Source: Psammoneis japonica (lineage: Eukaryota). Taken from it: a stretch of 64,000 nucleotides of DNA. The notes under the pieces were generated by a model. It saw nothing but the letters and a program-made list of their open reading frames with translations, was not told the origin of the DNA and searched no databases. Location: the NCBI GenBank assembly GCA_008632985.1, contig QPGO01000239.1, positions 1 to 64,000 of the forward strand. The letters run 5' to 3'. Positions 18,806 to 53,098 of this stretch are shown piece after piece. The position numbers and the translations under genes were made by a program. Position 1 is the first letter of the stretch; each line of letters opens with the position of its first letter.

Positions 18806-20537
18806 GGGTAAGGGTGGGAGTTCAGGGATCGGCAAAGTTTGCTTGCTTTGACGGGGTGTCGTCTTTGTCTCAAAGAAGAGCCGTGATAAGAAACTGTGTG
18901 CTCAGGCTTTTGTCGCCGCGTTCCACGTCTGGTCCGTTTCTGGGTCCTCAGTATACAAGCCTTGTGGGTTTTACGAGTTTCGGTGGCCACAAATCCGAAC
19001 CATGGTAATCGTATAAAGATCTCGAAGATGTCAGGTTTGACAAAACCCTTCCTGGCGGATAAACACGACTCGTCAGATTATGGGGAAACAGGAAGAAAAT
19101 TCTGAACTCGGTGAATGTAGAATTCTGAAATCGGGGGCATAGCGAAGTCGTTATGAATGCATTTTAAGCGCTGATGGTCAATAATGCCTTCTCGACACCA
19201 TCGTTGCAATTGTTTGTTTCGCGACGATAGTGTGATAGATGGACGTCGTGGTCGTGGACGGGCTTGAGAAATGAGAAATCCACATCTTGCTCAACGGGGA
19301 AGTCGCTCACAAAACTTCATGGTGTCTGATATTTCGCACCAATTCTTGATGTTAGAGAAGAGACCATACTTTTAGCAGCACGTTAAGGTGGTGTGCGGTA
19401 GATCGTCGTGCCAGATGCTGCCGTGTCGGTCATGGTGGATGCATGACGGGTCTGGGTCTGGGACGATGCGGAGCGCGAGCGGGCAAGCAGCAAGACGGTC
19501 AAAACGATAACGGCCCAAAAAATAGACGCGACCAACTCGATTGAGATCAATGACGCTGACGACGACGCTGTTTTGTGGGCTTCTGTCTGCCTCTCTCTAC
19601 GTACTCTCTACTCAAGCTACTCTCTAGAGAGTAGTAGCTAGCTACTCTAGTAGTAGAGAGCTAACTAGAGGTACTAAGAAGGAGCTAGAGTAGAGCTCTT
19701 CTGTACTAGTAGCTAGTAGAAGTAGGAAGAAGAGTAGCTACCGATCACTGTTTAGACGAAGAGAGGGAAGTAGGCTGAAGCGAAATTGATTCTCCATTTT
19801 TTTTTGTTTTAGTTTAAGAGTCTCTATCGTCCATCTCGTGTTCTGCGATTCTTTTTCGTTTTCATCACCTCTTTTGCCGGTCCAAGATTATTCCGGAAAA
19901 GACAGCTGTGTTGCCCCATAAAGCGAGTAATGTCGCTGCGGCAATACTGCCGTGGAGAGCCACAACAATCCCAACAGCTCCAACTGCAACGCTTGCAATG
20001 ACGTGAACACCGTCGAGACTCATGCTTGTCAAAGAGGATGATATGAAGTAGTCCAGGAAAGGGCGTCACAAATCGATGGGGTGGGAACTTGAGGGAGTCG
20101 AGCGATCGACAAAGAGTGCTTGGCTAGCTTCACTAGGTGTTGTTGGTGCGACAACGGTAAGTCGTCAAAAGTTGTGTCCTCTCGGGCTTTTTGTCGCGTT
20201 GTTTTGTGTGGTCTCGTTCGATTGAGCGGGTTGCCTTCCACGGCAATGATACGGATTGTGACGGTAACGGCAACCCCGAACGACGGCAATCGTACAGACA
20301 TCTCGAAGATGTCAGGTTTGGCGAAAACCCTCTCTCCCGGGTGATATGCACGACTCCGTCGTTGGTGAATTCCATCAAGCTCCTTTGAAATGATTGACAA
20401 GGTCAAGTCACTGTGTGGAAATTGAAGGCTGTTGCAAAGGCCACGTGTAGGAGAGAAAGCGGTCGCACCCTGGTGTTTCAATCACGTGTCGCCATCGACG
20501 CCGGTCCATTGAAAGCTCTTGCTCCCTCGTCCGTTCA

Positions 20538-26358: not shown

Positions 26359-26965
26359 TGTCGCGTGTGGTGATATGTCCACGTAGGCGATGTACTAGTT
26401 GATTCAATGGTTAAGACATTAAAGTGCCCACTGAGCGAGCGAGATGGTAAAGAGGCTTACCGGTAACCGTCAGGCAGTATGACGGCATCTCATCTATATA
26501 TGGAGCTCGCACTTTGGGTAGGATACATGACATGGTGAGATTCCTACATAGCTTCCTGGCACAGCGGATGCAAGACGAGGTCTGAGCAGCTGAAAGTTCT
26601 GATTGGCGGTGAAGTCAAAAGAGGTCGAAGGTTCGAAACTCGAAAGAGACTTTCTGTTCGAAGGGATGAGAAGGAGCGGTGTACAGACCGGTTCTCTGAC
26701 TTAGGAATCAGGAATCTCAGAGCAACCGACTTGACATAGGAACGAGGAGATCGTTGTGAACGAAGAACATTGAAGTCACTAGTAAGGAGGATGTCGCGTG
26801 TGGTGATATGTCCACGTAGGCGATGTACTAGTTGATTCAATGGTTAAGACATTAAAGTGCCCACTGAGCGAGCGAGATGGTAAAGAGGCTTACCGGTAAC
26901 CGTCAGGCAGTATGACGGCATCTCATCTATATATGGAGCTCGCACTTTGGGTAGGATACATGACA
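26359..26965 (+). mobile_element. TRIM-like non-autonomous LTR retroelement (607 bp)
   Basis: Two identical 174-bp direct repeats (26359-26532, 26792-26965) bounded by TGT...ACA; TGG-starting PBS-like site right after LTR1; purine tract AGTAAGGAGGA right before LTR2; 259-bp non-coding interior; flanks TGTACT / TGTGCT. Confidence 0.88.
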
Positions 26966-27032
26966 TGTGCTGTACTCATTTTCGACTCTAGCAGTCTCTA
27001 GGCAACGCGTAATGCGTGTATCGGCACATGCA

Positions 27033-28304
27033 ATGAAGACCTTTCCAACAGCAACAGCTGTCATCATTATTTTTTTCGGTCAAACAGCACTCTGGTCTCA
27101 GTTGCACCAGCATGCGCGCTATGAAGCAACGGTCTTTCACTTGCACCGTGATGCTTCCTTGTTGTTCCCGGAGCACTGCACAAACAGATCGGTCTTTGAC
27201 ATCTCTCCGGTTTTTGAGGGAAGCACAGCTGAAAGAGACCATCTGAGTGCATCTGACGCAACGGTTGCCACTCAATTTCACATCAACCCGACCAATCTGC
27301 AACGTTTTCTTGACGTTTTGACTCGGTGGGATGGGCCAACATCCGTTGCGGCGTGTGTCGATCAAGAGCATCTCGACTGTGGGATGAAACGTTTGACGCA
27401 GTTTTTTGCCACTCACCGCCATTTCTTGCAGACGAAGACTGTTGGCTTCCACCTTGTCACAGACAAAAGACTCAAGCCTGATGGCTCCGAACTTCTGCAT
27501 CCAATCAACATGCTTCGCAACATTGCAATTGAGCATGTGAAGACCGACCACATGTTGAGCCTTGACATTGACTTCATTCCCTCGCTTGAATCGCACGCTC
27601 CAATCCAGAAGCATCTGCAAAGAAACAAGTGTCTTCGGAACAAGACAGCTTTAATCATGCCAGCCTTTCAACGAAGGCTTTCAAAGGGCGAGCATGATTG
27701 CAGCCTCAACGCATCACACATTCCGCCAACGAAGGAAAAACCAGTTCGCGCCATGCAGCAGCAGCCGGGCATTTGCCGTCCGTTCAACGGGAAATCAAAA
27801 CCGGCTGGCCATGGACCAACCGATTTCAAAATGTGGGTGAACTCCACGGCGGCATGCCATGTTGAGTGCAGGCTTGATTTCGAGCCACACTTTGTTTTGC
27901 ATGCACAAGATCCATTGCCACCATTTTGGGAGCACTTTGCTGGCTACGGTAGAAACAAATTGTCGTGGGCAGAAGAGCTCGCCCGTGCTGGTTGCCAATT
28001 TGATGTTGCCCATGACGTCTTTCTAATCCACATCAATCATTCCTCTCTCGGCAGCAGGCGTTCAAAACGTGTGCTGCAAAAGAACAAGGAAGAATGCAGA
28101 CGTCATTTCAAGCCGCATCTGAAAACTCAGTGTCCTTCCCATTGCGTTGAGGTTCCATGGCCTAAAGATGGAAAGTGGCACACTGCCAACATCGTCAGAG
28201 TGAACAATGATGGAACATGTGATGTTCAGTTTGATGCCGATGGCACTTTCCAACCCAACACAACAAAGAGCCACATCAGGCCATTCGGGGGGAGGGACAC
28301 CTAG
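27033..28304 (+). pseudogene. Glycosyltransferase family 49 (LARGE/B4GAT1-like) with C-terminal Tudor-like domain; ORF open but hypermutated
   Basis: WDGPTSVA, HPINMLRNIA, LDIDFIPS, FEPHFVL, FAGYGRNK and FLIHINH match GT49 motifs; positions expected to be Tyr read His or Cys. Confidence 0.8.
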
Positions 28305-31300
28305 AGCGCAGCTCAAAATGGGATTCAACAAATCAAAGACAATGAGCCATAGATTGGAACTTTCTCGATGATGAATGAGAGTTCTAAAATGTGACTCTTG
28401 GCCAGCACGTCCGCGAAATTTTCAGGATTGTGTCTACGAACGCACACAAAAATGTGTTTCTTCAATGGAAATGTTTAAATGGGGGTCACCTGCTTGCCAC
28501 TTTACTGCAATTGGCTCGCGCGCTCAAAACGTTCTGTGCATGGACCAACAGCACCAGAGTGCTGAGCAAGGGATGATGCGTTTTGTTCAAAGAAAAGGTC
28601 GTCTGCTTGCCTCTTGACACTGATGGGTGGGTGACAAATTTTGTGTGTGTGAAGCAATGAGGGTGGTTCTTTGGCAAATTTTCATTTCGTTCTCGCGATT
28701 TTGAATTTTAGTGCCATGAAGTGGAGACTTGGTGGAAAACGCACTTTTTTTTCAAGTGCCAACCTAATGACAGCTTGCAAGATGTGCACATTCCCATCAT
28801 GACTGTGTTTGCGTGTGCCACAAGTTTGTGCCACATTGTCATTGGTGCTGGCAGAGCTGCCTAGAGTGCGGGGCCATTGAGTGGTGCAGCAAAAAAAATG
28901 ATGGCAGAGTCGTCAGCTTGCATGATTTTCATGCAGTGGCTGGCTGAAGATGTGGTTGACCCAAGGTGACAGCACCCAAAATTAGACCAGTGCATGGCCC
29001 AGCCACACTGGCTGTGCTCCACCTTCCTTGCAGCTGGTCTGCAGAAAAAAAACTGCATCTGTGCACATGCCTCTCAAACAGCAGGTTGCTCCAGCGGCCA
29101 TGAGGTGCCCCAAAAATCTGCCCAAGGATGCTGCAAGACAAAAGTTGCCATCAGCAAATGAGTCGACTTACAAGATTCTGCCCCAGTTGCTTCCATGTCA
29201 AAGTCTCTTGGCTGCACCAGAGCAGCCAGGCTGAAGCAGAAGTGCCTGACATGTTCCTGTGGCAAGGGTGTTGCCAGCATCAAAGAGATCATGCAAGAGC
29301 CAAAGTCTCCACCCTTGTTGCCTTGTGCAAAAATGGTGCTTTTGCATGAGACTTGGCAGCCTGTGCAGTTGATCACATTTTGCCACATGGACATCCCCAT
29401 GTCGGTGCTGCCAATGTCACTCCCATGTGGCCCAGCCAACCCCAAAAAATCAGCAAGATGATGCTGCTCTGGTGACAGTTTTTTGGGTTTCTTTGGGGAG
29501 GAAGGCTCTGCATCATCAAACTCATGAAATGGCAACTCTTCCTTGCCACGCTTGATGACTTTTACATTTTTGCTGACAACAAGCACACATTTTTCATTCT
29601 CAAGGAGAATGTCAAAATTGATTTGCTTGCCAGTGGTTGAGTTTCTGGCTTTGGTGGTTCCACAGAGAAGTGCTCAGTTTCCCACCACTTTTTGGGGTGC
29701 ACTGCCTCTGTGTGTCTGCTGTGGGGGCACAAAGCACTTGCCAATTCCTGCTTGGCCACTGCCAGTGCTGGTGAGCTTCTTTTTCTTTCTTGAAGTTGCA
29801 GCATGTGTTTTGAAGATCTGTTGCAGCTGCCATTGCTTGCTGGTGGGCTTGCATCTCCCTTGCAGTCATTGTTGCACTGCACACATGCTCCAGGAGTGAC
29901 AAAATTTGGCTTGCCTGCTTCGTTTTGTTGCCCGGGCACATCACCTCTCTCCAAAGTTGGGGTTGCACAAGTTGTCATCAAAGGAGGTGGAACAACTGCA
30001 TCAGGTGGAGAAGCTGTGGAACGAGCTTCAACAGGGCCGCCGGCCGGGAGTGTTCACATCAGACGCCATGGTTGGTTCATGCAAAAACAATTGTTTGATG
30101 CTCCGCCATGAAATTGGCGCAATGACATTGACAAAAACTTGCAAGATTTTGAAGTTTCTTGCCACACACTCCTCTTTTGTTGAATGTCACCTTGCACTTG
30201 AGCAACAATCAGAAGCCTGAAGAACTCTCCAGCTGGCTGGCCAGAGAAAAAGTCACACAGATTTTACAAAAATGACTGTGTCAAAATGGGTGACCACCAG
30301 CACTCTTTTCCCAAATGTCCAACCGGTCAACATGAGGTTGCTTTTTGTCCATTCTATGTTGACTCTGCTTTCCTCATTTGGTGCATGGGTTTCTTTTTTG
30401 TCCATCATGCATCGCTTGTTGAACATTGCTTGCTTGTTGCATGTGGGTTCATGTTTTGTCCATCCTGTGCTGCTGGAGATGCAGGACTCTGTTGCCAGCT
30501 TTTTGCTTCTATCAATTTAATCATGACCACCTGTCCACTGCTTTTTCAGCATGTGCAGCACTGTGCATGCAGCATTTTCTTGCTTGTGTGTGCTTCCCTC
30601 CCCACCAGCCTTGCTCACCCACACTCTGTGCCTGCCTGCATGGCCTCTCCAGTGTCATGTTTTCCCCACACACACCAACATCCCTCCAATGTTGCTCAAC
30701 TCACCAATCTCTTTGCTGTGGGGCCAGTGTCCAGTCCACCAGGTTTTTTCCTCAATTGAGATGGCAAAACCCACCTCCATTGAGGTGGGCAAAATGCATT
30801 CAGGTGAGCTGGCTGAACTGAAACAAGTCATTCTCCAGATGCATCAAGATCAGAACACACGTTTGAAGTTGCTTGAAGAACAACAACACCCAGCAGGAAC
30901 AAGACAAAAGGTTGCAATTGCTGGAAGCACAGCACCAGCCATCTGTGCTCTGTGCTCCAGATGCAACAGGACTGCCAAACTCAGCTCAACAATTTGATGG
31001 CTCAATTCCAGGAGTTCCTCCAATGCAACTGTGACCAATGTCACTGAAAACAAATCAGATTTTCTTTGGGTTGGGACAAGTCATCTTCACTGCCTCTGTT
31101 GTGCAATGCAGATCAAGGTTCTGTCTCACAGTCTTCCTTTGAGGAAGCAGCAGGGCCACACCATGAGTGAGGATTCTTCCTCACATGTGTTGCAGGCCAC
31201 TGCTCAGCAGCAAACCCCCTCAGATGTGTGTCCTCCTTCCTTGCACATGGCTGCCCAGCAATTTCACAATGTTCTCAATGGCCGACAGTGTGCGCCTCAG

Positions 31301-36200: not shown

Positions 36201-37269
36201 AGGTGGGCATGAAATGCACTGCAGACAGGACATGACAGGCCACATTGGCAAATGACATGAGAGACAATGATGTCAGTTCCATTGTGGAAAGCAGTCTCTG
36301 CAACAACAACAAAGCTGTTGCAACACTTGCAACACCTTGCTTTGCATGCACAATGCACTTGCCTGTGCCAAATTTGAATGTTGAGTTCTGCAAATTAGCC
36401 ACAAATGTGGGATGCAAAAATGGCCCATCGCATGTTCACAAGAACTCTTTGACACACTTTCAACCACTGCATTGTCTCACATTTAAATGTGACACAATGG
36501 AAATCTCCTGGCTCAACCCCAAACTAGACCCAAAGTCACCCAGCTCCTTTCGTTGTCACTTCCGGGGACACAGCACACATTTTGCCATGATTCAGTGCCA
36601 CTCTCACACACATTTCTGTTTCTGTGCCCCTCACAAGTGATGAATGAAGTGGGTGATTCCACAGCATGCTTGGCACACATGCATTGATTGACATGGTGTC
36701 ACATCACATCTCTTTTGAGGAGCAGCAGTCATTTTGTTCCAGCTCAGCAACCAAGAAAAATGCATGGTCCCAAGCGCCCATGTCAACAAGACCTTGGACA
36801 AAGTGACAGTTCATGATTTGGGAAGCCCTTGGGCCTTTCTCTCCCACTCCAGCAATGGTTGTCATTTGGTGCATTGTTTGAGCAGAGTGGGTGGCACCAC
36901 ACAATGTCAAAGCACAGCTGAAGTGCAAAAGCAAAATTTCAAAATCCAGCCCCCAATTTTGGAGTTTGCCAAATGTTTTCTAAAACTGGCAAAAGCTGAA
37001 TCTCAAGATCTTTTTTCTGATTTCCAAAGATCTGGGATCTGCTGCATCTGACAACCACTGTTGCCACCAACCAGAGCGGTGCCTGTCTGTGCCAACCACT
37101 TGCAACTTGTGTGCCAAGTTCATGGAGTTGCCCAGTCATCTTGTTGTCTGCTCCGTCTGTTGCATTCTTTCCCAAGAACAGCCAATTTTTCCTCACAAGT
37201 CCATTCAAATGTCAGCAGGCAATGATGGAACAAAAATGCAAATTTGTTGGATGATGTCAGGGTTGGAGA

Positions 37270-39260
37270 TGGTTTTTGCAGGACAGACAAAGTTGCAGCA
37301 GTGCAAGGTGCACTGGCAATTGTGGACAACATGGCAAGTTTGCATCACAACTTGGATTGAGTTGTGCATTTTGCACACACTTTTTGGCTTCTGCACCCAG
37401 TTGACATGGTGATGACAGCTGGTGGCATCAGCAGCAAATGTGTTTGCAAGCCATGTGGTGAGTTGAGAGACTGTGAGACAAAACGTGTGCCAGTCGGCAA
37501 GTCACAAAGCTCCAACACAGAAGCTGAAAAGTCATGGCACAATGCTCAAAGGAGTGGCATTGTTCAAGGGCTGGAAAGCCAAGCGGAATCCACAGAATGA
37601 GGGCTGGGAAGCTGAGAAGAATCTGCCAATGAGGGCTGAAAAGTCAACAGGAATCCAAAAGAAAAATGGCTGGGAGGTCAACAGGAATCCAAAGTTGTGC
37701 CTCTTGTCAGCAGATCACAGCAAATGAGCCAGCTGGGTGAGGGCAAAGAAACAATCTCTGGAGGGCCTTGCTGTCAAAAAAGCTGTCAAGGTTCTGCTAA
37801 AATGGGGTGTGGCAAGGTTGTGGTGTTGGGGTCAGTGACACAGAGAGCACACCTGTTGCCAAGCTTTGGAACTCCAACACAAATCCTGAAAAAGTTGGGT
37901 GAGGACACAGCTTGGTGCAGAAGCATGAAAGAATTGAACAAGTGGGTGCATGATGCCATTGTTGAATCAGGGTGACAGGCAGACAGATGCACGGACACCA
38001 TGAGGAAGATCCGTGAGTGTGTCAGAAGAATGTTTGGGCTGGAAATGCAGGCGTCAGTGTGTCCTTGAGGCAGGAGAGCATGCCAGGAGAGCTGGATTGT
38101 CTGCAGGGAGCAAGACACCATGTTGGAGAAGGACAAGGCAATCTGGGGTGAGAAATGTGATCACCATGTGAAACAGAGGGCAGCCCACAAGATGCAGAAG
38201 GCAAAGGCATTTGACACAATTGTGGGGCAAGAATGTGCAAAGGCAGTTTGTCATCACAAGCTTGAAGGAGTGACAGAGTTCATGAGTGGGACATGACAGC
38301 ACTGTTGGATGTTCTCAAGTTGTTTTTGTTCAATGCAAATGAGAAGAAAAACCCGCATGATGCATCCAGACAGTTGAGGCTTGGAAGCAGTTGGCACTCA
38401 TTGGTCAAGACAAAGGAGAGGTGCTTCAAGACCATCAAAATTGGTTTGTGAGTGTGGTGGAAATGGTGGAAATGTCTTGTGGTAGAATCATCCCAAAAGA
38501 AATCACCAAGAAAGAATGTGGGTTCAGCAAGGATGCTGATGATGCCCGGAGCAAAGAGAGGAACAAGTTGTCAGCAGCAGCAATGCCAACAGAAGATGCC
38601 AAGGACTGTTGGCATGTTGCCAAAGACCTGCATTGGCAGCACACATTGGGGATTGACATTTGTCCCAATTCAGCTGAGGAGGCACTGCAGGTGTTGGACA
38701 CAAGAAACCTGAGGGCACAAGATTTGCAGGAAGAAGATTGCATGCTGGAAGTGCAACAAGGTTGGACATCCAAGGAAGGATTGTCCTGACAGTGACCATT
38801 CATTGGCAGAGTCAGGCAGGAATTGTCAGAACAGCTGACATGGTGTTGGGTGGCATGGTTTCCAAGTGTGATCCTCCCATGCTCAATGCACATGCAGTCA
38901 AACAATTGATGTCTTTTGCAAAGGAGTGCATTGGAACATCAGAGGGTCAGAGGTGGTTTTTGCAGGACAGATGGACAAAGTTGCTGTGCAAGATGCACTG
39001 CAAACTTGTGTTTGTCACTCAGATTGAGTTGCAGGTTTTGTGCTCACTTTTTGGCTTCTGCATTAAGTTGGCATGGCAATGACACCCAGCAACATCAGTT
39101 GATGTGTTTGTGAGCCACACGGCAAGTCAGGAGATGGTGAGACTGAATGCACACCAGTTTTGGCAAGCTGTGGAGCTCCAACAAAACTGGCTTCAAAAGG
39201 CAAAAGAGAGATGGGGCAATGAAGCAAAAAACATGGAGTGCTGCTGCTGTGGAATGCATG
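37270..39260 (+). mobile_element. Degenerate Copia (CoDi-like) gag remnant flanked by diverged ~280-bp direct repeats (about 37270-37550 and 38955-39200)
   Basis: QDKGEVLQDHQNWF...VE..E..G...DL..QHTLGIDICPNSAEEALQVL resembles diatom Copia gag (Q..ES..DY..RF; QY.LG.D.YP.T...A); both repeats begin GGTTTTTGCAGGACAGA. Confidence 0.55.
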
Positions 39261-42200
39261 CACAGATCTGGAACTGCATTGACAGACATCACAAATGGGG
39301 CTCCAAGTCAGGCCATGCTCCCTTCTGTTTGATGACCAAGGTTCCAGAAAAGCCACAAGCATCAGAGCCAGCCTTGCTGTGTGCCCCCCCCCCCCCCCCC
39401 NCCCCCTGCACCCATCACTTCATTGTGCTGTCACTGTGATGAAAGGCTTTTTTGCCAAAATCTTCCCATTGCCACTCAAAGACACTGACCATCCAAACAG
39501 TTTGTCAGACTGTTTCATGGTTGGAGTTTGACCATGCTGCGGCTGTGTCCATGATGCAGATGCTGTCCTGTCATGGACAAACGCTGGTGCACTTCCTGTG
39601 AAATTGGCACTCTCATGATCACCTGCCTGCCACCACCAAGACCAGCCAACCCACTTCATCAAGACAAAGAGAGGCTCCAAGTTTGCTGCTTTGACTTGTC
39701 GGCTGACTGGACAACCCAACAGAACCCACACAACAAAGAGCTGCAGCTGTGCACCAAGACCCGGCCAGCATCCTTGCCACTGCTGGGGTCATTCAAGGAT
39801 GCTCCAACAGGGCCACAGTTGCTCCAAATCTGTTCAAGGACACCATGATGCTGAAGTTGTCATCATTGGCAGATTGGAGATTGGCTGACAAGAGTCTTTC
39901 CCAGCACTTGCTCCCATGTCAAAGTCTCTTGGCTGCAGCAAAACAGTCAGGCTGAAGCAGAAATGCCTAAAGCTCCAGCGGAAAGAACATTTCTGAGAGG
40001 TCAACAGAGAATCCAAATTTGTCCTCATCCCTTTGTCTGCAAACAATGCATTTGTGCAAGACCCAGCTGTCCATGCTGCTGTCAGCCACATCTCACCACT
40101 TGAACATCAACCCTGCATTTGTGCCACCAGCCATCTCCATCATTTAGAGCCAAGACTTTCCAATGGCTTCACTGATTGGCACAGTCCTTCCAACACTTGA
40201 CCCAGTTGCTCCCACATCTGGGTGGCTTCATTGAAGCAACGAACTGCAACAAACTGGGACAAGAAGTGGGCTCACCTGGTTGATGTGCTTCCACCACCAT
40301 GACTGTTTTGTCATGCAAAAGCATGGTCCAAAGCACTGCCATGTGCTGGCTGGAGTCAAACTTGACACAGTTGTGTCAGGAGTTGGACAAGGTGTGGGAT
40401 GAGGAGCTGTGGTTTAACATTTTTAGAAAAGCTGTTGGCAGTGCTCCTGGATTGGGAAAAGGAGTCACAGTTTTCATGGGAAAACATGTTGGATTCCTTG
40501 CTGTTAGACTCAGAGTAAAAGGTCATGGCATGGATTCAATCAAGTGCAGGTGGCTCAGCATCAGATGCGCATGTGGGTTGAGGCCCTGAGGACACATGTG
40601 CAGCTCTTGCCAACTTCTCAAAGATGTCATTTCCTGCAGCCTCATCTGTGGATTGAAGGGCTGCAGCACCAGCCATTCTTTGGCTGATGTGCTCTGAATG
40701 GGTTGAAAAACAAACCACATTCTTCTGCAACATCACAGTTGCCCTGAATTGTGCACAGACTTCTTGGCTGTGAATGACTTGCAAAGACAACTTCAACATC
40801 ATGCACTTCAAATGCTGGCAACTTCCAGAGCAAGAGAAGTCAGCTGTCAGCTGCACTGATGATGATGAGCAGCACTCCTGAAAAAGCCCTTGAAGTGTTG
40901 CTCATTTGCAGTGCTCCACAAGTCAGAGTCTGCTGCTTCATCAAATTCTGAAGCCATGCCATCTGAGCTTGTGACCAACCCAGTTGCTTGTTTGGCCTTG
41001 ATTTCCTGGCAAGGCTTGGTCACAATTGCAAACTTTGAGGTTTCATTTCTGGTGCCTCCTGTCATCTCCTCATCATTGTCAATTTTTCCATGTTTGCAGA
41101 TTTAGCTTGTTCATTTTCAACGTGAACCACTGCATCTCCAAAGTCAAGTGATGGGTGCATTGAACTCAAACCAGCATCCACTGAAACCTTCTTGTCCTCC
41201 ATGGGAGCTGAGTGGTGCACTGCCAGGGACAATCATGAAGAGACAACAATGTGTTGAGCATGCGGCAGTGCCTGACTTGTTGTGCTTTTAAACTTGGTCA
41301 ATGATGCAAAGAGCAGGGGCTTGATTTTGCCATTGTGGGCAAGCTTTTCCACCACCAGATCAAACTCAAAGCCAAACTTCAGTCAGGTCCACTCTTGCCT
41401 GAGAGCTTGATGAAACACATGGTTCACCCATTTTTCAATCATCCGGCACCCCTTGCAACATCCACATGTGAGGTGCAGGACAAAAAGGGTTGGAACCTGG
41501 AGGTCTTTCTGTCAGTGGGTTCAATCAGTGTTCAAAAAGATGTGCACGTGGGTGACAAGGATCTTGGTCAAACCAGACACTGGTCGACTGTCTTGTGCAC
41601 CCAGTGCAAAGTGCAAAACTCAATGCATGCCCTCACAGTGAGTTTTGTTGCTGCTTTTGGTGTGCCAGCCATTGCCATCAATGGCAAAATGAGACACCAG
41701 CACTCCCCAATGTCAGCTGCCATTGCAAGCAGCTGAGGTCAGCTTTTGCTGAATGATCTGTGGAAATGTTGCACCACAAGCACTGGAGTAGAAAAAAGTG
41801 ACACACATGAAAAAGGTGCTTGCAAAAAAGTGCACTTCCAACTTGTGTGTTCAAAAAAAGATGATTGCTGCTTTTTGTTTCCATTTAATGTGAGAAGTTG
41901 ATGGGGAAAATGGAAGGTCTTCATCTTGGTTGCTTGACAACAAGCTCTTTGCAGTTTGGACAAGCTGGAGTCCTCATGGTTGATGCTTGATGCTGCAGCA
42001 GGTGCTGTGCACCTCTTCGTGCTTGACCCTCTTTTTGCACTTCAGTCATTTGTCAAGTTCTGCAAGCATGGAGCTGTGCTGGTTTTATCTGGCTGTTTTT
42101 GTCTTGGATGGTTTGCACCTGGGTGGAATGTCAGTGCTGGGGAAGAGACAAGAGACAGTGTGCCAATCCACAAAATTCTTGCCCTCATCAAGGATGAAGA

Positions 42201-42379
42201 GCAGACTGACACATGGCTGAAAAATGATTTGTCAAGCCACAAAATGCATTTGATCTCCAAGAAGTGCAGTCCAGAGCTGGGGCAAGGGGCACTTTGTTTT
42301 TGACTGTGCAGCTCCATCCACCTCCTGATGTCAACAAAACTGGCAAGTCCAGAGACACACTGGCAAACTGAGCTGGCTG

Positions 42380-43020
42380 TCAAAGTTTGCTGCAACTCAC
42401 AACATGTGCTCTCTTTCACAACCTTCATTCATCCACCAGCATCTTTACAAGCATCAGATGCTTCCAGTCATTTGCAGTTTCCCACAATTTGTGCCAACAG
42501 CTCAGCCTCAAATTTGGCTGTCACATTCCCTGACCCCTCCCAACTTGGCCATTATTCTGCATTCCCAAGACAGTGGCTGCACCACTGCCCACACTCATTG
42601 TGGAGTGTTTTGACAGACACTGTCCAAAAACATTGCCAGCTGCAAAGGTGCCTTGGACAGATGTTTGTGCGCTGGTGCTGACAATTGCCTTCAAGCACCT
42701 AAGATGCTCCTCATCAAATTTGACCTCATCTTTCAAAAAGAAAGTGGATGGAGCATGTCCAGCGGCAACAAACAATGCTGCACCATCATTGACCTCACTT
42801 TCTTCCTTGGTTTTGACATCCATCAATGCAATGCCAGTGACAACCTTTGGCTGCTCAGTGATGAGATCAATGTCACTGCTTTCCCTGTCTGTTGCCTCTG
42901 CCATCTTTCCCAAAATTTCCTTTGCTGTGGCACTCCATTGAATGTTTGGCAGAGGGTGTTCAATGACTTGCAGAGCCAGCACTTTTGACTCCCCAAACAT
43001 GTCTCTTTGATGAACCAAAT
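42380..43020 (-). pseudogene. Mutated duplicate of the last exon of the thioredoxin reductase gene at 50819-51445
   Basis: Colinear nucleotide match (e.g. GCCAGTGACAACCTTTGGCTGCTCAGTG shared exactly); translation HQRDMF..SKVLA.QVIEHP...EQPKVVTG...GHAPSTFFLK...TSVQGTFAAGNV. Confidence 0.92.
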
Positions 43021-43615
43021 TGGCAGCATCACAGACGGTTGATTTTTGTGCATGTGAAGCTGGCATGCTGCAGCAGCAACACCAGCTCTGTTCTGAAAAG
43101 AGCAGCTTCTGCAAGATGGTTCAGCAAGAACCATGCACTTTGGTCACAATTGATCCAAGATCTCGCAAGACAGGGTTCGTCTGTCCTCAAAAGCCGGTGG
43201 CAGGTTGCTTTGGAGTTACAAGGTCAGAACAAGCAGACACAACAAAGTCGGAATGAGTGGACAATGCAATGTGCTCATGTCGACTGATGACATGTGGGTT
43301 GGAAGAGCTCTGCCAGATTGGTGTGTTGTCCACCCAAAAGAGGCAAAGTTCAGAAAGACATTGTATGTCGTGACATGAGTCGACGCGAGATGATGAAGTC
43401 TCTGGCCGGCACCTGGTGAAAATTACATTTGATTATTCGACTGACATTACACTGTTGCACCACATTTTCTACTAACTAGTTAAAGCACATACAATATGAA
43501 GCCGTGCACTTCCCGAGCGGAAGGCGAGTATGGTAGAGGACAGAGGAGACACCACAGAGGAGGTTTCCACTTGCCACCTTATTCTCAATTCAGCTTCAAT
43601 ATCTTAGGAAACCTG

Positions 43616-46292
43616 TTACTTGCATCCACCACACTCCCAACCATGGGCACGTTTATGCTTGGCAAACGAATTGGGAATGCATTTTTCAATACATCTACCG
43701 AATGTCTCCGTCTTGAGCGTCACTCCATCCAACACACCGAAGAGAGTCGAGCAGCTTTCCTTATCCGTGCACACGGAAACAACGGACTCATCCGGCACTC
43801 CGTTGTTGTTAGTGTCATTACTCAACCCACAGCTGGCATATTCACTACAAAGTCCCCCGAGAGCTGAGCATTCAATATCGCAAATATCGGGGATACCATT
43901 GTCGTTGAAATCCGTGTATTCTGATGCTTCCAACCACACTCCCTGTATAATGTTCGATTCTCCAGTAGAAGAAGCAGATGACTGTATCGAATCTACTCCT
44001 GATTCTTCTCCAATGTACCAGAAGCGGACAATCCCATTTCCATCAGTGCGACAGTCAGCGGGATCACAATTGACGGTCGCACCAGCATTTGGGCCTGAAA
44101 TTACATCGATATTTACTAACTTGCCTGCTACAACCTCTCCATCCATACGATATGTGACGAAGGCTGAAAGAGTGCCTCCCTCTTCTTGAGCACTAATCTC
44201 TGGAGACATGGACAACGGAAGAGGATCACGGACGGTGAGGGCACAGTCCGCTGTTAGCACCGTGCCCATCACACCAACCGTGACAAGTCTTTGCCCACCC
44301 CCAAGGTCAGAAGGAACGCGGACCCTGAACTCGGCGATACCCGATTCATCCGTCAATCCGGTAGCGACCATACGATCACCAAAGAACACCTTGACCTTGC
44401 TACTCTCCGTCAATTCCCTCGCTTCTAGAATCACAAAGTCCCCAGGATCAACAGGATCTGTTGTTTGATCTTCTGAAGTCAATAAGCAAACCGGGAACGT
44501 GGGTGTCTCAAAAGGGCGAAGTGAATAAGAATCTTCACCTTGAAGATCATCCGGCATCCTATCCGTTTCTACGATTTCGTCATCTGTTTTCAAAGTAGCT
44601 ATTGCCTGGACGCGAACCGTTGACTTGAGAGATCCACCAAGAAAACTGTTTGGTACTGTGAACAAAATGGTGTCGCGCTCATATGTCTCAACATCACCGT
44701 CCTCGGTGTCGTCGACTGACCATACGGGGAGTATGCGAGCACTGAAGCCACAAAATTCTTGTCCATGGCATTTATCGACAAAAACGCCTGTTGTTGCATT
44801 GTATTCAAATATTTTGTCCAACTGCGATGAAGAATACTCGCTCGTCAAGGAAGTGAAAACAAGCACAAACTCGGCCGACTCGAAAGAAGATTCAATTTCG
44901 AGATCTGCTGGCTTCCCTCCCGTGGCACTGTATCCATCCGCATCCAAAACGATGGCGTAAGTACGATTCTCAGTGCCAGATTCAGTTTTCTTAGTAACAT
45001 ATTCAGGAGTTGGCGGTTCAGGGATCTTCCCGAGAAGCTCCAGTAGAAAGAATGTAGTACCTGTCTCGACGTTTTCAGAGATACGGAGATGGAAGAGATC
45101 AAGGGGTGCATCATTGACGTCAAGAACATTATCCCATCTACCATCACCATTTACTGGGGACGGGATCAACACTCCTGGAGGGTCAATGGTTGCTCCATCG
45201 AAGGCACCAGCGGTCGCGCGAGCCTTTCCTCGTTGAAGTGCAGTCATGTCCCTTGACTGTGGGTTCGAAGCATCACAGCAACTGCTGGAAGACATGAAAG
45301 TCAATGGGGTAGCGCATCGGTCTTCGCTGGAATCGCAGCCGTCGAAGGGCCCATCGCTGTCATTATCCACTCCATCGCCATGGTCGAGTTGAAGAACGTG
45401 GCCTACAGGAATGTTAGCGAAACAGTGTGAATTGAGAATGACATACTTGCTTTTACAATACTTTGCCTACGAACTTACCAATTTCATGAGCTGTTATGCG
45501 CTCATTCGTTTGATCAAATACAACTTCATCTCCAACACAACCACTAAGTTGAGTGAATCTCTGGTTATCCCTTATCCAGACAAAGCCTCCAGAATTGTAG
45601 GTTACCACTGGTGGATTACTACAGAGATCTCCAGAGAAGCTGGCTCGTTCAGAAGTGCCAAACAGGGTCGAGGTTGTACCATCAAGGTTTACCCATCGAC
45701 CCAGATTGATAGCAACCACGCCTCCTGGATCCGTAACATCGGCTTCATCGTATAGATCCTCCCATGCTTGTACGCACAATGTCCTAACCAGGTTTCTTTC
45801 ATTGTTGCTATCAAGTTGGCGCTTCGTTACATCTCCAAGATCTCCTGGACACCGCCCACCACAATCGGTCGGACAAGCCTGAGTGGAACACTGAACTCCA
45901 GCATCACAATCAGGAGAGAGCCCCGATGCATCTGGGGTGCATGAGAAGCCTTCGTTGGACCCGCCTTGGCAGAGGGTAGCAGTGGAAGGAGGGCATGGGT
46001 CCCGGATGATAGGGAATCCGATATTTCGAAGTCTGGCTACCGCTGCGCTTCGCAATGATATATCTGCTTGAGGCATATAGATTCGATCAGTGGCGCGCTC
46101 GTGTCTTCGCCAAAGTACTGCATTGTGATCAGGCTCGGGCATCATGTTGTAAGGATTGAGAGGCGCGTTCCCAGGCGTCACAACAGCAGGACTGCCGTCA
46201 ACTGCACACCACTTGACTGGAAGGAAGATGGTATCACCAGCATGCGCAAAAGCAACCAGGGAGGTGACTACCAATGCCACCAAGATCTTCAT
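43616..46292 (-). CDS. Secreted metzincin-type zinc metalloprotease with Ig-like C-terminal domains; intron 45403-45478
   Basis: Signal peptide MKILVALVVTSLVAFAHA; splicing yields ITAHEIGHVLQLDH (HExGHxxxLxH) followed by a Met-turn-like LTFMS; Big_1-like segment (VNIDVISGPNAG...TDGNG.VRFWY) and DxNxNGIPDxCD repeats. Confidence 0.85.
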
Positions 46293-47029
46293 ACCGGTAT
46301 TCTCTCTGCAGAAGAATGGGGCAAAGGGCAAGACTGTCAGCGTCGATGTACCAAACGAGTTAGTGGCAAAGTCAAACAATGGATTCATAGAGACTTCCGT
46401 GGATACGTAAAGGCTCAACATGTGTGGCATAAGAGAAAATTGCATTTCTCCTGTTGTTACAGAGATTGTCCCTCGCAGCGATGATGACACAAAACAACAA
46501 CGTTCCATCAGTGAGCAGTGAGCGGGGCTAAAACGCACAATAATCGGTGACGTGAAGTCTTTTCCTACATAAGCACAAAGAGGCCTGGGCAAGGGATGAT
46601 GCATTTTGTTCAAAGAAAAGGTTGTTGCTTACCTCTGAGCTCTTGACGCTGATCCTTGGTGACAATTTTTTGTGCGGCGCATTGAAGCAAAGAGTTCGTT
46701 TTGTTCTCGCGATGATTCTACGGTTGACTTTGCTTCAAGTGCCACCTAACGATCGCTTGGAAGTATCAATGAAAATATATATGGATGACATTGTCATTGC
46801 ATTCAATTTACAACTTCATGCTCGTACAACACAGTAATAGACATATCGATGATCGCTTGCCGTTCGTACATAACGAAAATGACGGCGGAACCGTTAGCTC
46901 GCGGATTGGGTGAGGCCGGCGTACGCGGCGCTGGCGTTGAAAATTTAAAATTAAAAAGGCGCGCGACCAACGAGACAATGAACCCACCCCATGTCAAAGT
47001 CAATCGCGCTGCAGTGTAGGGCTATCTTG

Positions 47030-50000
47030 AACTCCTTGCAAGATTTTCAATGGTCTTGTTGGACATGGCATCCTGTTTGATCTCTTGCAGTGCATCAGGC
47101 TGTGGTGGCCCCACTCTGCCTCTCTGTCTTCGGTCTTTTGCAGCTTGTTTCTGCTGTGTGTCGTGCAGTTTCCAGAGAGCTGGCACACGTCATTCTTGGT
47201 TGGCTGAAGATGGCCCAGCCACCCTCCACTTTCATTGCAGCTGGCAAAAAAAGCAGTGTCTGCCTGCACCTTTCTCAAAAAGAGGAGGCAGACGGCAGCT
47301 CTCAAAATGGCTGCAGCAGATGCCCCAAATCTGCCAGATTGCACATCCTGTCCCAGTTGCTCCCAAGCCAAATCTCTTTTCTGTGTTGGAGCAGTTGGGC
47401 TGAAGCAAAAACACACCCATTGCTCCTGCAGGCAGTGCAAAAGCACCATCATCTCCAGCTGTGCATCCCAAGAGATCAGCCAACAATCAAAATCCATCCT
47501 TCTTGTTGTTGCCTTTTGTGCAGAAATGATGCTTTTCTGCGTGAGACCCAGTGGTCTGTACAGCAGTCATGTCTTGCCTCTTGGACATCCACCCACTGAT
47601 GCGTGCCACCAACATTGCTCTCCCATGAGGCCCAGCAGCAGCCTGGGGGCTCTGGGTTGAGCACACCACCTCTGTTTGCTTGGCTGCAGTGGTGCCAAGG
47701 CCTTTCCAACAACTTTGCCAGCTTCCAATCTTTCCAACACTCAACCCATTTGCTCCCACATCTGGGTGGTCACATCAAAGCAACAAATGATGACAAAGCT
47801 GGGGCAAGAAGTGTGTGCACACATGCAGCTGCTGGTGTGTTCTCACCACCATTGCTGCTCCACTGTGCAAAAGCACCAAGTTCTTGAGCATCCAAGCACC
47901 AACCAGCCCAGCCATGCAACACCTTTTCAAAGCACTGCCATGTCCTGGTTGGAGTCAACAAAATTGACATGGATGGAATGGGAGTTGGAGTGGACATGGG
48001 GCACAAAGAGCTGGGTTGCAAGAAGCTGCCAGCAACTGGACTGGGAAAGAAGAAAGGGGTCAGAGTTTGCATGGGAAATGTGTTGGATTCGTCCTTCCCG
48101 TGAGACTCACAGTCAAAGGTGGCAAGGCTGGATCAAGTGTTGGTGGCTCTGCATCAGGTGGTGTGTGTGTGAGAGTGTGGAGACCCTGTGGACACACCAT
48201 GCACAATGCTTGCCAACTTCCCAAAAAACATTTTTTGTCTCCTGCATCAACACCTCTGGGCTGAAGGTCTGCAGTGCCCAAGCCACCATCATTTTCATGT
48301 GGTCAGTGTGCTGAGTGGGCTAAAGAAAGTGCTCTTTTGGCTGCAACATTGTTGTTGCCCTCAGCTGTGCATGTGGCTTTTTGGCCACAAATGACTTGCA
48401 ACAACAACTCAGAATTGTTTGTTCTGAACACTCATGTTTGCAAGCTCAAAGGAAGGTGACTTTAACATTTTGTGCTCCAAATGCTGGCAACTTGTCTGGA
48501 GTGAGAGAAGCTGGTTGACTCTGTGCTCAGCTCCCCATCTGCCTGTCTCCTTTTTTCTTTTTGAGTTGTCTGCTGAGTGCAAATCAATGGCGAGCTTCTG
48601 TTGTGTCCTTTTGTGTCAGTGTTGGCATGTTCTTCCCTCCTCTGACTCTTCTGAGTGATCTTCATCTGCAATTGTTGGATCTGCCAGCGGTGTGTTGAGT
48701 TTCTTTCTTTCCACTCTTGTCAATTTTTGGTGTGGTCAATAGAGTGTCATTCTCCCAGCAGGTTTGAGCCCAGTTTGTGCAAGCATTTTTTGGTGAGCAA
48801 GCTGCCACTCAGCATCAGGTTTGTTCTTCTTTGTTTTGCAACCTGAGTTTGTTGCCAAACCATCTTGTCCTTTGCTGTTTTTCTTGTTTGTGCCTTTGCC
48901 ATGCATGGCACAAGTTAGTGTGTGTTTTTTTCTAGAACAAGCCCTGCTTCCTGCAGCACCAGTCTCTCTGTTGAGCCACTTTGTTGACAGCTGGTTCATT
49001 CTTTTCTTGTTTCTCATTTCATTTTGTTCTTGTTGATTGAGTGGGCTTCAGTGGCATTGAATCTGGCTGTAAATCATGCACCTCTGCCAACTTGTCGCCC
49101 TCCTCAAACTGAAAGGGAGAGTGTCATTCTCTCCCAGGTGCCTGATTTTTGCACAAAATTTGTGCAGAGATGTTCTTTGACTCTTGTTGTTTGTTGTTGA
49201 GCACAACTTGGGTTTGTTGCAGTGCCGTCGCATCTTGTCCTTTTCCTTTTTCTTGTGTGCATCTCAGTGAGAAGAATTGTCACTCTCTTTTCTTGTTGTT
49301 TGTCAAGCAATTTTGGTTTGTTGCAGTGCCATTTCTTCTTGTCCTTTTTCTTTTTTCTTGTGTTCACCTCAGTGAGAAGAATTGTTGTTGCTCTCTCCAC
49401 TCATGGTGGGATTTGTCCAGCTTGAGTCTCATGCATGCATGTGCCAGGTGCTGGACAGGATCTGCTTGTTCAATCCATTGCACATCAATTTACTCAGCAG
49501 TGACTCCATGTGTTTTTTCCTGCATTGTGCACACCTGCTGCATGCACCTGCACAGCAGGCGGCAGTGGATGAATTGGAGTGGTCACACCTTCCTCCATCA
49601 AGCCTTGCTTGTCCTCCATGGGAGCTGAGAGGTGTGTTGCCAGGGGGACAATCATGAAGAAGAAAATGAGGCATTGTTGCTGAGCATCTGTCTTCGGCCA
49701 CTGCACACCTGAGTCACTGCTCTCCAAGTTGGTCAACAATGGCAAAAAGCAGGATCTTGATTTTGCTGCCACAGGCACACATTTTCACTGCCAGATCAAA
49801 CACAAAAGTTGTGTTGATGTGTTTTGAGCCTGTTGTTAAGAAAGCCATGCTCTCACATGAGACCTTCATCAGGAACTTCTTGACTTCATTCAGCACCTCT
49901 TGCAACATCTCCACATGAGAAACAGGATAAAAAATTTAGAGCCAAGAGGGCTCTCCAGTGATTTGCTTGGCTGGGGTCTGAAGAGATGCACACAGGCAAC

Positions 50001-50440
50001 AAGGGCCTTGGCCAAATCGGGTGCTGGTTTGACTGTGTCTTGTGGATCCAGCAAATCCCAATGCATGCCCTTGCAGCAAGTCTTGTCACCACTTGTTGTG
50101 TGTTGACCACAGCTCTCAATGTGGCAAAATGAGAACATGGATCAGTGAGCAGCAGCCAGGGCTGGCTTTTGCTGTTGTGCAAGAAACAGACTGCTGGGGG
50201 GGGGGGGAAGCATGAGAAGGTGATGCCCAAAAAGCATGCTTCCAGCTTTTGCATTTGAAAGAGATGAATGTGGCAACTCACTGCTTTCACTTGATGTGAG
50301 AAATTGATGGGAAAATTGAAAGGTCTTTGTCTTGGTGATGTGCTCAACATCAAGCTGTTCATGGCTTGGGTGAATTGGAGCAGTGGTCAATGCTCACAAA
50401 GTGCGCACCTCATCCTCTTTTTGCGCTTCAGTTGTTGGTC
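47030..50440. other. Hypermutated block D, homologous to about 39.5-42.1 kb and partly 28.9-29.3 kb
   Basis: TpA/CpG depletion; shared anchors such as TTGTCCTCCATGGGAGCTGAG (about 41193 and 49609) and GCTCCCACATCTGGGTGG (about 40208 and 47752). Confidence 0.85.
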
Positions 50441-50818
50441 AAGTTAATGTCTGTCCACGAGCTTCTAGCAGTACGTAGAATCTTGCGCAAAGTTAAGTCT
50501 GACACGCTGGTTTTGGTCGAGGATAGTTCGCGTTTGAGTGGAATGTCGGCATGTCCGAGGACAGCTAGCATGCAAATGCACACTGATCTACGAAATTTTT
50601 GCTAGAGTGGAGGATGAAGGGTAGATCGACGCGTAGCTGAAAGATGATTTGTCGAACGACAAACGTATAGTGTTGAGAGCCAGGGTAAGGGGCATTTTAT
50701 TTTAGAATGTGCAATTCCTTCTACTTAATGTCGACAAAACTGTCGAGTCCGGAATCAATGCAGGTAAACTAAATCGGCTGTCTCTAATGAATTCGAGCCG
50801 CTCAAAATATACAAAACT

Positions 50819-53098
50819 CTACAATTCGGCAGAGATGCTCTCTTTCATCCCCTCCATTCGTCCGCCGGCGTCTTCATAAGCATTAAACGCTTCTGGTTGT
50901 TCATCATTCCCCATGATTTCCGCTAACAGCTCCGCCTCGAATTCGGCCGCCTCGTTTCCTAATCCCTCTTCACTCAGCCATCGTTCTGCATCCAAGGCAG
51001 CGGCTGCACCACTACCCGCACTCGTAATGGCTTGTCGATAGACGCTATCTGAAACATCACCGGCTGCAAAGATGCCTTGGACAGACGTTCGTGTACTGGT
51101 TCCAATTGTTTTCACGTATCCAGGATGATTCTCATCGAATTCGACCACGCCTTTCAAAAAGGAGGTGGACGGAGTATGTCCAATAGCAACAAATACCGCA
51201 TCACAAGCGATCTGACTTTCTTCCTTGGTTTGAACATCCGTCAAAACAACGCCAGTGACAACCTTTGGCTGCTCAGTGTCGAGGTCCACGTCGTCGCTTT
51301 CTCCATCTGTTGACTCCACCGTCTTTCCCAAAATTTCCTTAACTGTGGCGTTCCATCGAATGATGATAGAGGGGTGTTCAATGACTCGCTGAGCCAGCAC
51401 TTTCGACGCCCTAAACGTATCTCTTCGATGAATCAAAGTGACAGACTTAAATAAAGAAAGGAAGAGGTTGGTCAATGATTGCTTTTCCAGGATAAATCCC
51501 CTCCGAGACTTTTCTCGACAATAGCCTTACCTTGCTGGTTCTTGCCAGGACAAGCGCATCCTCCATGGCAGCGTCACCGCCACCAACAGCACAGACATTC
51601 TTTCCACGAAACACAGCACCGTCACAAGTGGCACAGCTACTTACGCCTCCACCACGCATTTCCCACTCGCCAGGGACACCCAACCAGTTGCTTTCCGCAC
51701 CAGTAGCAACAATGATGGAGTGTGTTTCAATGACAGAACTGTTGGTGACAACCTTAAACGGTCTTTTGGAGTCATCCACGGAAAGAACGGTTTCTGCCTC
51801 AAACTTGGCGCCCCATTCAATCGCCTGTTCACGCATTCTCGAAATGACACCGGGCCCGGTAATATTAAACAATCCAGGATAATTCTCAACATCCACACCC
51901 TTGCCCTGCAGCTGTCCACCCATGGGCGGTGCCACGACAACCGGTGTCAGTCCAGCACGAGCAGCATAAATGGCTGCAGACATGCCCGCAGGTCCGCCTC
52001 CGATAATGGTGACTCGCTCCGGAAAATCTCCCGGACTCCAACCATGTTCAAACTCCGCATCGTCGTCATCCTCTTCTTCTACTTGTTCATCCACTTCGTC
52101 GTCAAGACGCTTTTCCAATTCACGCATAAGTTCCTCCTTTGTTGCTAAATGCAAATTGGCCTTGTCTGGTTTCGCGTTTTTGGTGGAAGCATCCGTCTTT
52201 TCCTCTTGCTTCTTTTCTCCTTTTGCTGCCGGTTTTCGGTCCTCGGCCGAAAAGCGCTCCACAGTCTTGGGTACTTTGCCATACTTTTTCTTTAACTTTC
52301 TCGTCAATTGATTCGCTGCAGCTCCTACACAATCGGTCGTTTTGGTCATGTCGGCACACTTTTTGTAAACCACCTCAATGGCCTCTCGCGTCTTGGTAGC
52401 ATCCACTTGTCCATAATACTCCACTAGTTCCTCTTTTGACAAGACCACATTTTCTAATTCTGCTTGTCGAATCACTTGTTGTGTCATTTGTTTCAATTGC
52501 GCTTCGCCCGCTCCCGAAAACTGATTCACCTTTTTGCCTCCCAAAAAGTACACAAAGGTCGGAAGCGATCGAATCTGATATTTCGATGAAAGTTCGTACA
52601 TGGCGTTGGTATCCACCTTGACAAACACAGCCTTGTCCTGCCCGACTTGCTTTGCTAAATTCTTAAAGACTGGAGCCATCATGCGACAAGGACCTATAAC
52701 GTTGCAAAACGATTAATATAAAACAGCTCAGCATGAACATAATCTCGAATCTCGGTACAGAGTCAACAACAATAATAAATTTTAACGGGCCTTACCACAT
52801 CCGTCAGAGTAGAAATCGACAATCACGGGCAAGCCCGTTTCAGTGGCATGCTTCTTAAGGAGTCGTTCGAATTCTGTGTTGTGTGAATGAGAGTATTGCA
52901 ATTTTGTTTAGTTCAAGAGGCGTTCGAATTCTTAGAAACAGCATGTTCCGTCGTTTCCTTCGATTTCAATCAAGCTAATCATGCACAAGTCAGTTTCTTA
53001 CCATGTGTAGAGCGAATATGACGAACCAGTGGACGTGCCGAGACAATGCTTAACACTATCAACAGCACAAGAGCCGCAAACGGCCGCGGCCTCATCAT
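50819..53098 (-). CDS. Thioredoxin-NADPH thioredoxin reductase fusion with signal peptide; exons 53098-53002, 52873-52796, 52693-51531, 51445-50819
   Basis: Three GT-AG introns keep frame; Trx site VDFYSDGCGPC is split by intron 2; NTR motifs IIGGGPAG, GVSSCATCDG, VGGGDAA, HRRD, GIFAAGDV and QAITSAGSG. Confidence 0.93.

Follow-up and report, generated by a model that had tools for sequence, protein, structure and literature searches.

The DNA analysed here is a 64,000-nucleotide stretch, referred to as the window, from the diatom Psammoneis japonica (assembly GCA_008632985.1, contig QPGO01000239.1, positions 1-64,000, forward strand). It includes a gene for a thioredoxin-thioredoxin reductase fusion (TrxR) that extends to about 53110; its best homologue is 74% identical among the matches listed, and the named homologues among the 120 matches listed are from diatoms. 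The last exon of TrxR and its 3′ flank are present twice, in a right copy (R), where they are intact, and in a left copy (L), where the dinucleotides TA and CG have been erased. The features that make up this pair are the following.

39405..43026, unstranded: left copy L, TA and CG erased over its full length (alignment, step counts)
42054..42389, unstranded: erased copy of the TrxR 3′ non-coding flank in L (alignment)
42390..43026, minus strand: pseudo-exon derived from the last TrxR exon, erased, carrying 3 stops as well as frameshifts and terminating at the base that matches the exon/intron junction of R
50365..50465, unstranded: sharp edge within the duplicated segment, between the upstream DNA of a dead gene and the TrxR 3′ flank (change-point)
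50440..50818, unstranded: clean 3′ non-coding flank of TrxR, presumed 3′ untranslated region and terminator, with 22 CG and 23 TA in 379 bases (stop at 50819)
50819..51445, minus strand: intact last exon of the TrxR fusion (homologues, open reading frame (ORF))

In a local alignment, L 39696-43026 is colinear with R 47193-51444, and the pieces matched by BLAST are 66-76% identical. A reading of the letters made earlier (the sequence-only reading) had described a colinear direct copy that includes the last TrxR exon. This copy is real, although the alignment begins at 39696/47193 and not at 39530/47000, and all six pairs of intact and mutated sequence that were quoted as examples were found at the positions given for them. 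About 1 kb of R (48.5-49.56 kb) has a counterpart of only about 0.3 kb in L, and L 39405-39696 has none in R and matches intact paralogues elsewhere. When the genome was searched at the DNA level with the clean part of R, 2 places matched, namely R itself and L. The copy ends (43026 / 51445) within a base or two of the TrxR exon/intron junction. The possibility that L is a retrocopy was rejected because the homology does not continue into the previous exon or intron (best score 26) and includes downstream DNA. The left end of L has a long C run (39385-39406) with the only N of the window (39401), and where L carries an A-rich stretch R has a G run (50196-50208).

Raw counts gave 64 CG and 41 TA in R 50440-51445 and 2 CG and 4 TA in L 42040-43026, and the rest of R (47193-50400) has 13 CG and 11 TA in 3208 bases. 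Every aligned step in the clean part of R was altered in L (59/59 CG and 37/37 TA), both at 50836-51444 (41/41 CG and 17/17 TA) and at 50440-50835 (18/18 CG and 20/20 TA). The outcome in L was TG or CA at 52/59 CG and 28/37 TA. The 37 TA sites yielded 13 TG and 15 CA, that is, TpA>TpG and TpA>CpA, on both strands. Double hits that turn TA into CG, quoted earlier as a sign that both strands were struck, were seen in 2 cases only. Runs of changes on one strand are absent in L (17 vs 14.9 expected for the 28 TA; 30 vs 26.9 for the 52 CG). Change-points place the edge in R at 50400 for CG (range 50365-50420) and at 50440 for TA (range 50375-50465), inside the homology, as expected from the claim that L is mutated throughout and R only up to about 50440. 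The proposed polarity, from intact R to mutated L, was confirmed by the homologues: at the 79 differing codons, the R residue is the commoner at 72, the L residue at 4, and 3 are ties, among 60 of the 120 listed homologues. The residues changed in L include 42 that are conserved in at least 80% of the 60.

The clean exon of R carries 42 CG and 17 TA in 624 bases (6.7% and 2.7% per base), vs 63 CG and 29 TA in 1160 bases of unduplicated TrxR exon (5.4% and 2.5% per base). As many as 35/42 CG and 14/18 TA could be lost synonymously, and all are kept. Because synonymously losable steps are retained at the density of unduplicated exon, it appears unlikely that selection alone is the cause of the clean R. 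The non-coding flank, which selection was said to explain less easily, also retains its 22 CG and 23 TA in 379 bases.

Five blocks of the window have little TpA and, for the most part, little CpG (about 1-4.6, 6.8-11.3, 27.0-43.3, 47.0-50.44 and 53.3-54.6 kb). In three erased blocks, the observed/expected (o/e) ratio is 0.10 for CpG (1.02 in clean DNA) and 0.05 for TpA (0.58 in clean DNA), CA and TG stand at 1.89 and 1.76, and the G+C content of the blocks is unaltered (0.46-0.52; near 48%). Two features adjoin L in the 27-43 kb domain.

37250..39200, unstranded: high-copy repeat directly left of L, erased (79 matches)
43120..43430, unstranded: right edge of the 27-43 kb erased domain (change-point; CG edge 43160, TA edge 43360)

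The repeats at 29.4-39.2 kb were classed by eye only. The right edge lies 250-450 bases beyond the stop of a gene that we call gene A (ORF end 43616). Change-points and ORF ends define clean margins that reach about 380 bases beyond the stop of TrxR, 250-450 beyond that of gene A, 500-650 beyond an ORF ending at 6271 and <200 beyond one ending at 54614, and it may be that these margins are transcribed.

Steps of the form T-A-pyrimidine (TAY), which the sequence-only reading names together with CpG, are strongly preferred but are not the rule. The TA left in three erased blocks, set against those in clean DNA, numbered 48/230 without a TAY reading, 25/625 with one and 1/369 with two (p about 5e-21), so TA sites outside TAY were also lost, more slowly. 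A hand count at mixed sites gave TAY over T-A-purine at 10/13 (p=0.09). Adenines outside TA were altered in L at 40/189 before a pyrimidine vs 19/208 before a purine (p=0.001), and in five transposon copies off-target adenines changed at 8/104 vs 3/185, respectively (p=0.02). By 5′ base, non-TA adenines changed at 21/140 after A, 16/118 after C and 22/139 after G, with no preference after A; AA was not depleted in the blocks (1.22 vs 1.19). TA is lost ahead of CG. The five transposon copies hold 3-18 TA and 12-68 CG per 1.6 kb, and the TA edge at 27.02 kb is followed by a CG edge only at 28.74 kb. The loss of CpG may be a second, slower process.

The remainder of the duplicated unit is a host gene, as shown by alignment to unmutated relatives elsewhere in the genome. 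The Pfam domains of these relatives are MLKL_N (weak, E 0.002), kinase and FG-GAP_2, and one intact relative holds all parts in 1174 residues. Its copies, and the piece that adjoins the one in R, are:

39405..41700, minus strand: dead MLKL_N / kinase / transmembrane / FG-GAP copy in L (DNA alignment to unmutated loci L039-L044, L058 and L059; Pfam of relatives)
47193..50130, minus strand: dead copy in R of the MLKL_N/FG-GAP gene, erased (alignment to relatives)
46975..47105, minus strand: 3′ end of a multi-copy, transposase-like element, lying at the left edge of the erased domain of R (multi-copy matches; edge 47010-47025)

The dead copy in L retains the 3′ end of the gene, which is missing from R and from the third copy, M, described below. 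A transposon was considered as the identity of R 47-50.4 kb and was rejected, as the multi-copy element matches only 46975-47105 and intact host paralogues account for the rest. That element was assigned to the DDE type by eye, without a Pfam match, and the piece is absent from M. No other place in the genome was found when it was searched with a translated piece of R 47-50.4 kb. The erased block of R holds only about 130 bases of recognised transposon, and is a dead host gene between two working-looking flanks, each with an orphan copy elsewhere. The family of this gene is expanded, with MLKL_N-helical, kinase, membrane-segment and FG-GAP parts in varying combinations and a receptor-like layout (L039-L044, L047, L048, L058-L060); L040 is itself partly erased and frameshifted.

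At positions where L and R both have TG or CA, the two copies were discordant at 65/244 (0.27; 95% interval 0.21-0.33) in alignment blocks of at least 15 columns, which were used since shorter ones favour matches, and at 47/188 in blocks of at least 25 columns. Simulation at the observed background gave a discordance of 0.29 if erasure followed duplication and 0.16 if it preceded it (30 replicates); an earlier simulation of 3 replicates had given 0.30 and 0.18. With all aligned columns, short blocks included, 71/329 were discordant (0.22), nearer the model of erasure before duplication. Since 0.27 is close to 0.29, both copies of the dead gene were hit mostly after duplication. The discordance fits a separate death of each copy as well as a homology trigger overridden by transcription. 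Six paralogues tried as outgroups, to tell shared from separate erasure, were too distant (43-56% in the alignment) and offered too few sites.

The left flank of the erased block of R belongs to gene A, and it too has a copy elsewhere.

43616..46292, minus strand: gene A, between L and R, long open frames with normal TA and CG and without a Pfam match (ORF)
46293..46910, unstranded: clean upstream DNA of gene A, presumed promoter, the original of a partly erased stretch in M (alignment)
28300..29436, unstranded: third partial copy M, made up of upstream DNA of gene A and a portion of the dead FG-GAP gene, severed at 29435 by another repeat

The M and original sequences of the gene A upstream DNA align with a score of 161, vs at most 43 in 60 shuffles, and M retains 9 TA and 20 CG vs 26 TA and 32 CG in the original. 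M and R are therefore a second asymmetric pair, with the orphan partly erased and the original spared. Only the active-looking flanks are asymmetric, since the dead gene is erased in both copies.

Directly upstream of M lies a gene in which TA is erased and CG is kept.

27033..28304, plus strand: glycosyltransferase (PF13896) ORF, still open, with 8 TA and 60 CG in 1272 bases

This ORF encodes 2 Tyr, 31 His and 13 Cys, and looks like the TA-only stage of a host gene. Tyr was lost at 10/10 columns where 9 homologues keep it, 8 of them now holding a His or Cys codon, a single step away from TAY, and the ORF matches 85/120 of the other conserved columns. No paralogue above about 42% identity was found among 8 scored candidates, and the best full-length one is 32% identical. 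A duplicate thus appears not to be needed for erasure, as this gene was erased without a close paralogue. A duplicate does not seem sufficient either. Seven copies of a related MLKL_N-kinase gene, 99.4-99.5% identical (L049-L055; contigs C233, C387, C438, C487 and C2), have normal TA and CG in the gene part, and 9/10 of their substitutions, 5 at CpG, fall in the first kilobase, which is TA-poor, of a length of about 3.5 kb whose remainder is coding. FG-GAP paralogues at 76-84% identity are also unmutated. Because the originals were spared, an unduplicated gene was erased and near-identical genes were left unmutated, these comparisons suggest that region, not homology, sets the target. Upstream of the glycosyltransferase, and adjoining it, is a 609-base element (26359-26967) with 176-base identical direct repeats, unmutated (33 CG, 37 TA) and present as 100%-identical tandem copies on contig C8; it looks like a young small element of the long terminal repeat type.

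In repeat-induced point mutation (RIP), which requires a duplicate, C is changed to T at CpA, which makes TpA and lowers G+C, both copies are hit, and the process is premeiotic and depends on RID/DIM-2. The available passages on RIP in Neurospora and other fungi describe heavy context-specific transitions in repeats and duplicates that kill gene copies (PMC7296669). At the diatom locus, by comparison, TpA is destroyed, G+C is held, one copy escapes and a gene without a duplicate is among those hit. About 1 kb (50.44-51.45 kb) and 0.6 kb (46.3-46.9 kb) were spared in one copy, only the dead FG-GAP gene being hit in both, and instead of TpA being created by C>T its o/e fell to 0.05 in the blocks, vs 0.58. 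The process is not RIP: its chemistry is opposite, one copy is spared and no duplicate is needed. The sequence-only reading had also contrasted it with RIP, as following the domain and sparing the expressed copy; the regional targeting and the asymmetry of the flanks stand, but the dead gene was erased in both copies.

A closer likeness is the TpA>TpG/CpA hypermutation of integrated DNA of nucleocytoplasmic large DNA viruses (NCLDV) as well as virophages in Bigelowiella natans, the only printed case of TpA hypermutation found in our literature search (bioRxiv 10.64898/2026.01.13.699255). As far as the accessible part of that preprint goes, it reports TpA-poor, TpG/CpA-rich clusters in single-copy silent DNA, measures de novo rates, raised 1000-fold, and proposes, but does not show, an A-deaminase. 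Both systems change TpA on both strands, locally, and with no need for a duplicate. The Psammoneis locus differs in its diatom lineage, on another supergroup branch, in near-saturation, in the additional loss of CpG, in the hits on host genes and in the 3′-pyrimidine preference, as well as in sharp edges that lie some hundreds of bases from intact genes and in a pair of spared and erased duplicates, none of which that part of the preprint reports. The targets are not of viral or foreign origin, since the TrxR exon, the FG-GAP gene and the glycosyltransferase are host genes, with repeats adjoining. Nor is the change almost only A>G, as all 59 CG were lost in L while a TA-only state exists at 27.0-28.5 kb. 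No publication on TpA hypermutation in diatoms was found in the literature search, in which most subscription papers were out of reach. The CG-methylated transposon islands attributed to DNMT5 in diatoms are described as isolated islands over repeats, co-marked by H3K27me3/H3K9me (PMC9998398). They would account for CpG decay in sharply bounded blocks, not for A>G at TpA running ahead of CpG loss; the passages of that paper that were available do not describe mutation, and the word deamination occurs 0 times in them.

We consider it probable that a local mutator in silent DNA blocks explains the pattern. Within silent blocks, A in TpA would be changed to G, whichever strand it is on (TA>TG or CA), with TAY preferred, and a slower decay of CpG would follow. 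The unit, a host MLKL_N/FG-GAP gene with the ends of its neighbours, would have been copied locally twice, to give L and M. The copy of the TrxR 3′ piece, without a promoter or 5′ exons and beside repeats, would have been dead on arrival and erased with its block, and the copies of the FG-GAP gene would have died and been erased separately in L and R. The originals of the working genes (the TrxR exon with about 380 bases of 3′ flank and the gene A upstream DNA) would lie outside the block and would never have been hit. We infer that the block corresponds to a chromatin state whose edge is set by the activity of the neighbouring gene, that methylcytosine deamination causes the CpG loss, and that the agent of A>G could be an adenine deaminase acting on DNA.

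Several points weigh against this reading. Of nine edges compared, 5 have the TA edge outside that of CG, 2 have both level and 2, with overlapping ranges, have the TA edge on the inside. The paralogue search for the glycosyltransferase scored the best candidates only, so its identities are lower bounds, and the lack of change in the 99.4% copies and in the 609-base repeat could simply reflect youth or redundancy of the assembly. Of the 3.3 kb of L, about 2.3 kb was erased in both copies, mostly after duplication, as a homology-sensing trigger also predicts. Whether DNA is called silent or expressed depends here solely on its open frames. Searches for deaminase families returned 9 and 4 matches that by eye look like housekeeping dCMP deaminase, TadA, ADAT2, RibD and ADAT1-like proteins, none singled out. 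A TadA/ADAT-type deaminase would prefer a 5′ T and a 3′ pyrimidine, and such a preference is seen at this locus; it was not found for TadA in PMC10661471.

Other explanations were weighed against the regional mutator. Homology could start silencing, either by pairing or by small RNA made from the three copies at this locus, and both copies would be marked, with only transcription of TrxR and gene A keeping their own units free of the mark. All three copies of the dead FG-GAP gene are indeed erased, its sites in L and R are mostly independent (0.27, vs 0.29 after and 0.16 before duplication), and recognised transposon makes up only those 130 or so bases of the erased block of R. We nevertheless hold this rather unlikely, given an erased gene without a close paralogue, the unmutated near-identical copies and FG-GAP paralogues at 76-84%, and the single-copy NCLDV region hit in Bigelowiella, as described in the accessible part of the preprint (bioRxiv 10.64898/2026.01.13.699255). 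A different agent within the same targeting is conceivable, with A>G arising from polymerase-eta-like error-prone repair at T:G mismatches left by methylcytosine deamination. The signature of polymerase eta is WA>WG. That TA and CG loss share most edges within 200 bases, and that off-target change is raised in L, would agree with such repair; a WA signature was sought in L and in the blocks and was absent, AA is neither preferred nor depleted, and TA was lost over 1.3 kb where CG is intact, which leaves this agent quite improbable.

It could also be argued that RIP-like bursts hit both copies and that selection removed any lineage whose TrxR was damaged. By DNA search, no intact copy other than R was found, and 42 of the residues changed in L are conserved in at least 80% of the 60 homologues. 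However, a survivor effect of this kind is very improbable because the synonymous CG and TA and the 379-base flank are fully kept, L has no strand runs, which many rounds of bursts would blur, and in the part of the preprint available only 2-45 changes arose across 186 kb in Bigelowiella lines; the gene A upstream DNA was spared too. An assembly artefact, in which two haplotypes were joined, is scarcely credible. One N stands in the C run at the left end of L, but the copies are 69-77% identical with one-way context-specific change, stops, frameshifts and different deletions, and there are three copies with different ends. A context-specific divergence of 23-31% with stops and frameshifts is not what a haplotype mis-join yields.

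The other substitutions between L and R had been taken as evidence that the duplicate is old, which was not supported. Exon differences outside CG and TA number 23/165, 34/181 and 27/158 at codon positions 1, 2 and 3. As there is no third-position excess, L would have been dead on arrival. Transitions are no commoner at synonymous (19/160) than at non-synonymous sites (37/329), so the synonymous sites of R show no extra change, and the R/L ratio of synonymous branches is best fitted by 0.05 (upper bound 0.75; p=0.014 vs equal rates). Either the block raises other substitutions or the synonymous sites of R are constrained; the off-target A>G in L bears the 3′-pyrimidine bias of the mutator. The flank points weakly the other way, as it differs more than the exon at neutral-context sites (19/121 vs 27/294, p=0.06), as if the flank of R had drifted as well.

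Further observations were made in other parts of the window and genome. A direct repeat, 86% identical, at 1035-1490 / 1913-2357 lies in a block that has lost its TA and roughly half of its CG, and 24 of its differing steps are CG vs TG/CA. At 8611-9786 (minus strand), inside the erased 6.8-11.3 kb block, there is a weak reverse transcriptase match (E 1.6e-4, below the cut-off). Tandem repeats of 85-90% identity at 16747-17213 and 18409-18806 have normal CG and TA counts. Loci L015-L019 form a transposase-like family, 81-94% identical among copies and without a Pfam match, in which erasure is graded with TA ahead of CG; L015 and L017 bear a 390-base inverted-repeat insert.

The locus provides natural controls within a single window: two orphan copies that were erased and whose working originals were not, a dead gene hit in both copies, a host gene without a duplicate in a TA-only state, and edges mapped to about 100 bases. 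The Bigelowiella case does not settle how the target is marked, and this locus argues for region-guided targeting. If other substitutions are raised in the blocks, the ages of repeats and pseudogenes would be overestimated in such genomes. A wider proposal, which is tentative and may well prove wrong, is that the diatom edits adenine at TAY in DNA outside active transcription units, repeat or not, ahead of CG methylation and independently of it, with a front that spreads into host genes, such as the still-open glycosyltransferase with its Tyr turned to His or Cys, and halts some hundreds of bases short of working genes, raising other substitutions and erasing orphan duplicates before synonymous change marks the parent. 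If true, the mutator would remove gene duplicates under regional guidance and would locally upset the molecular clock.

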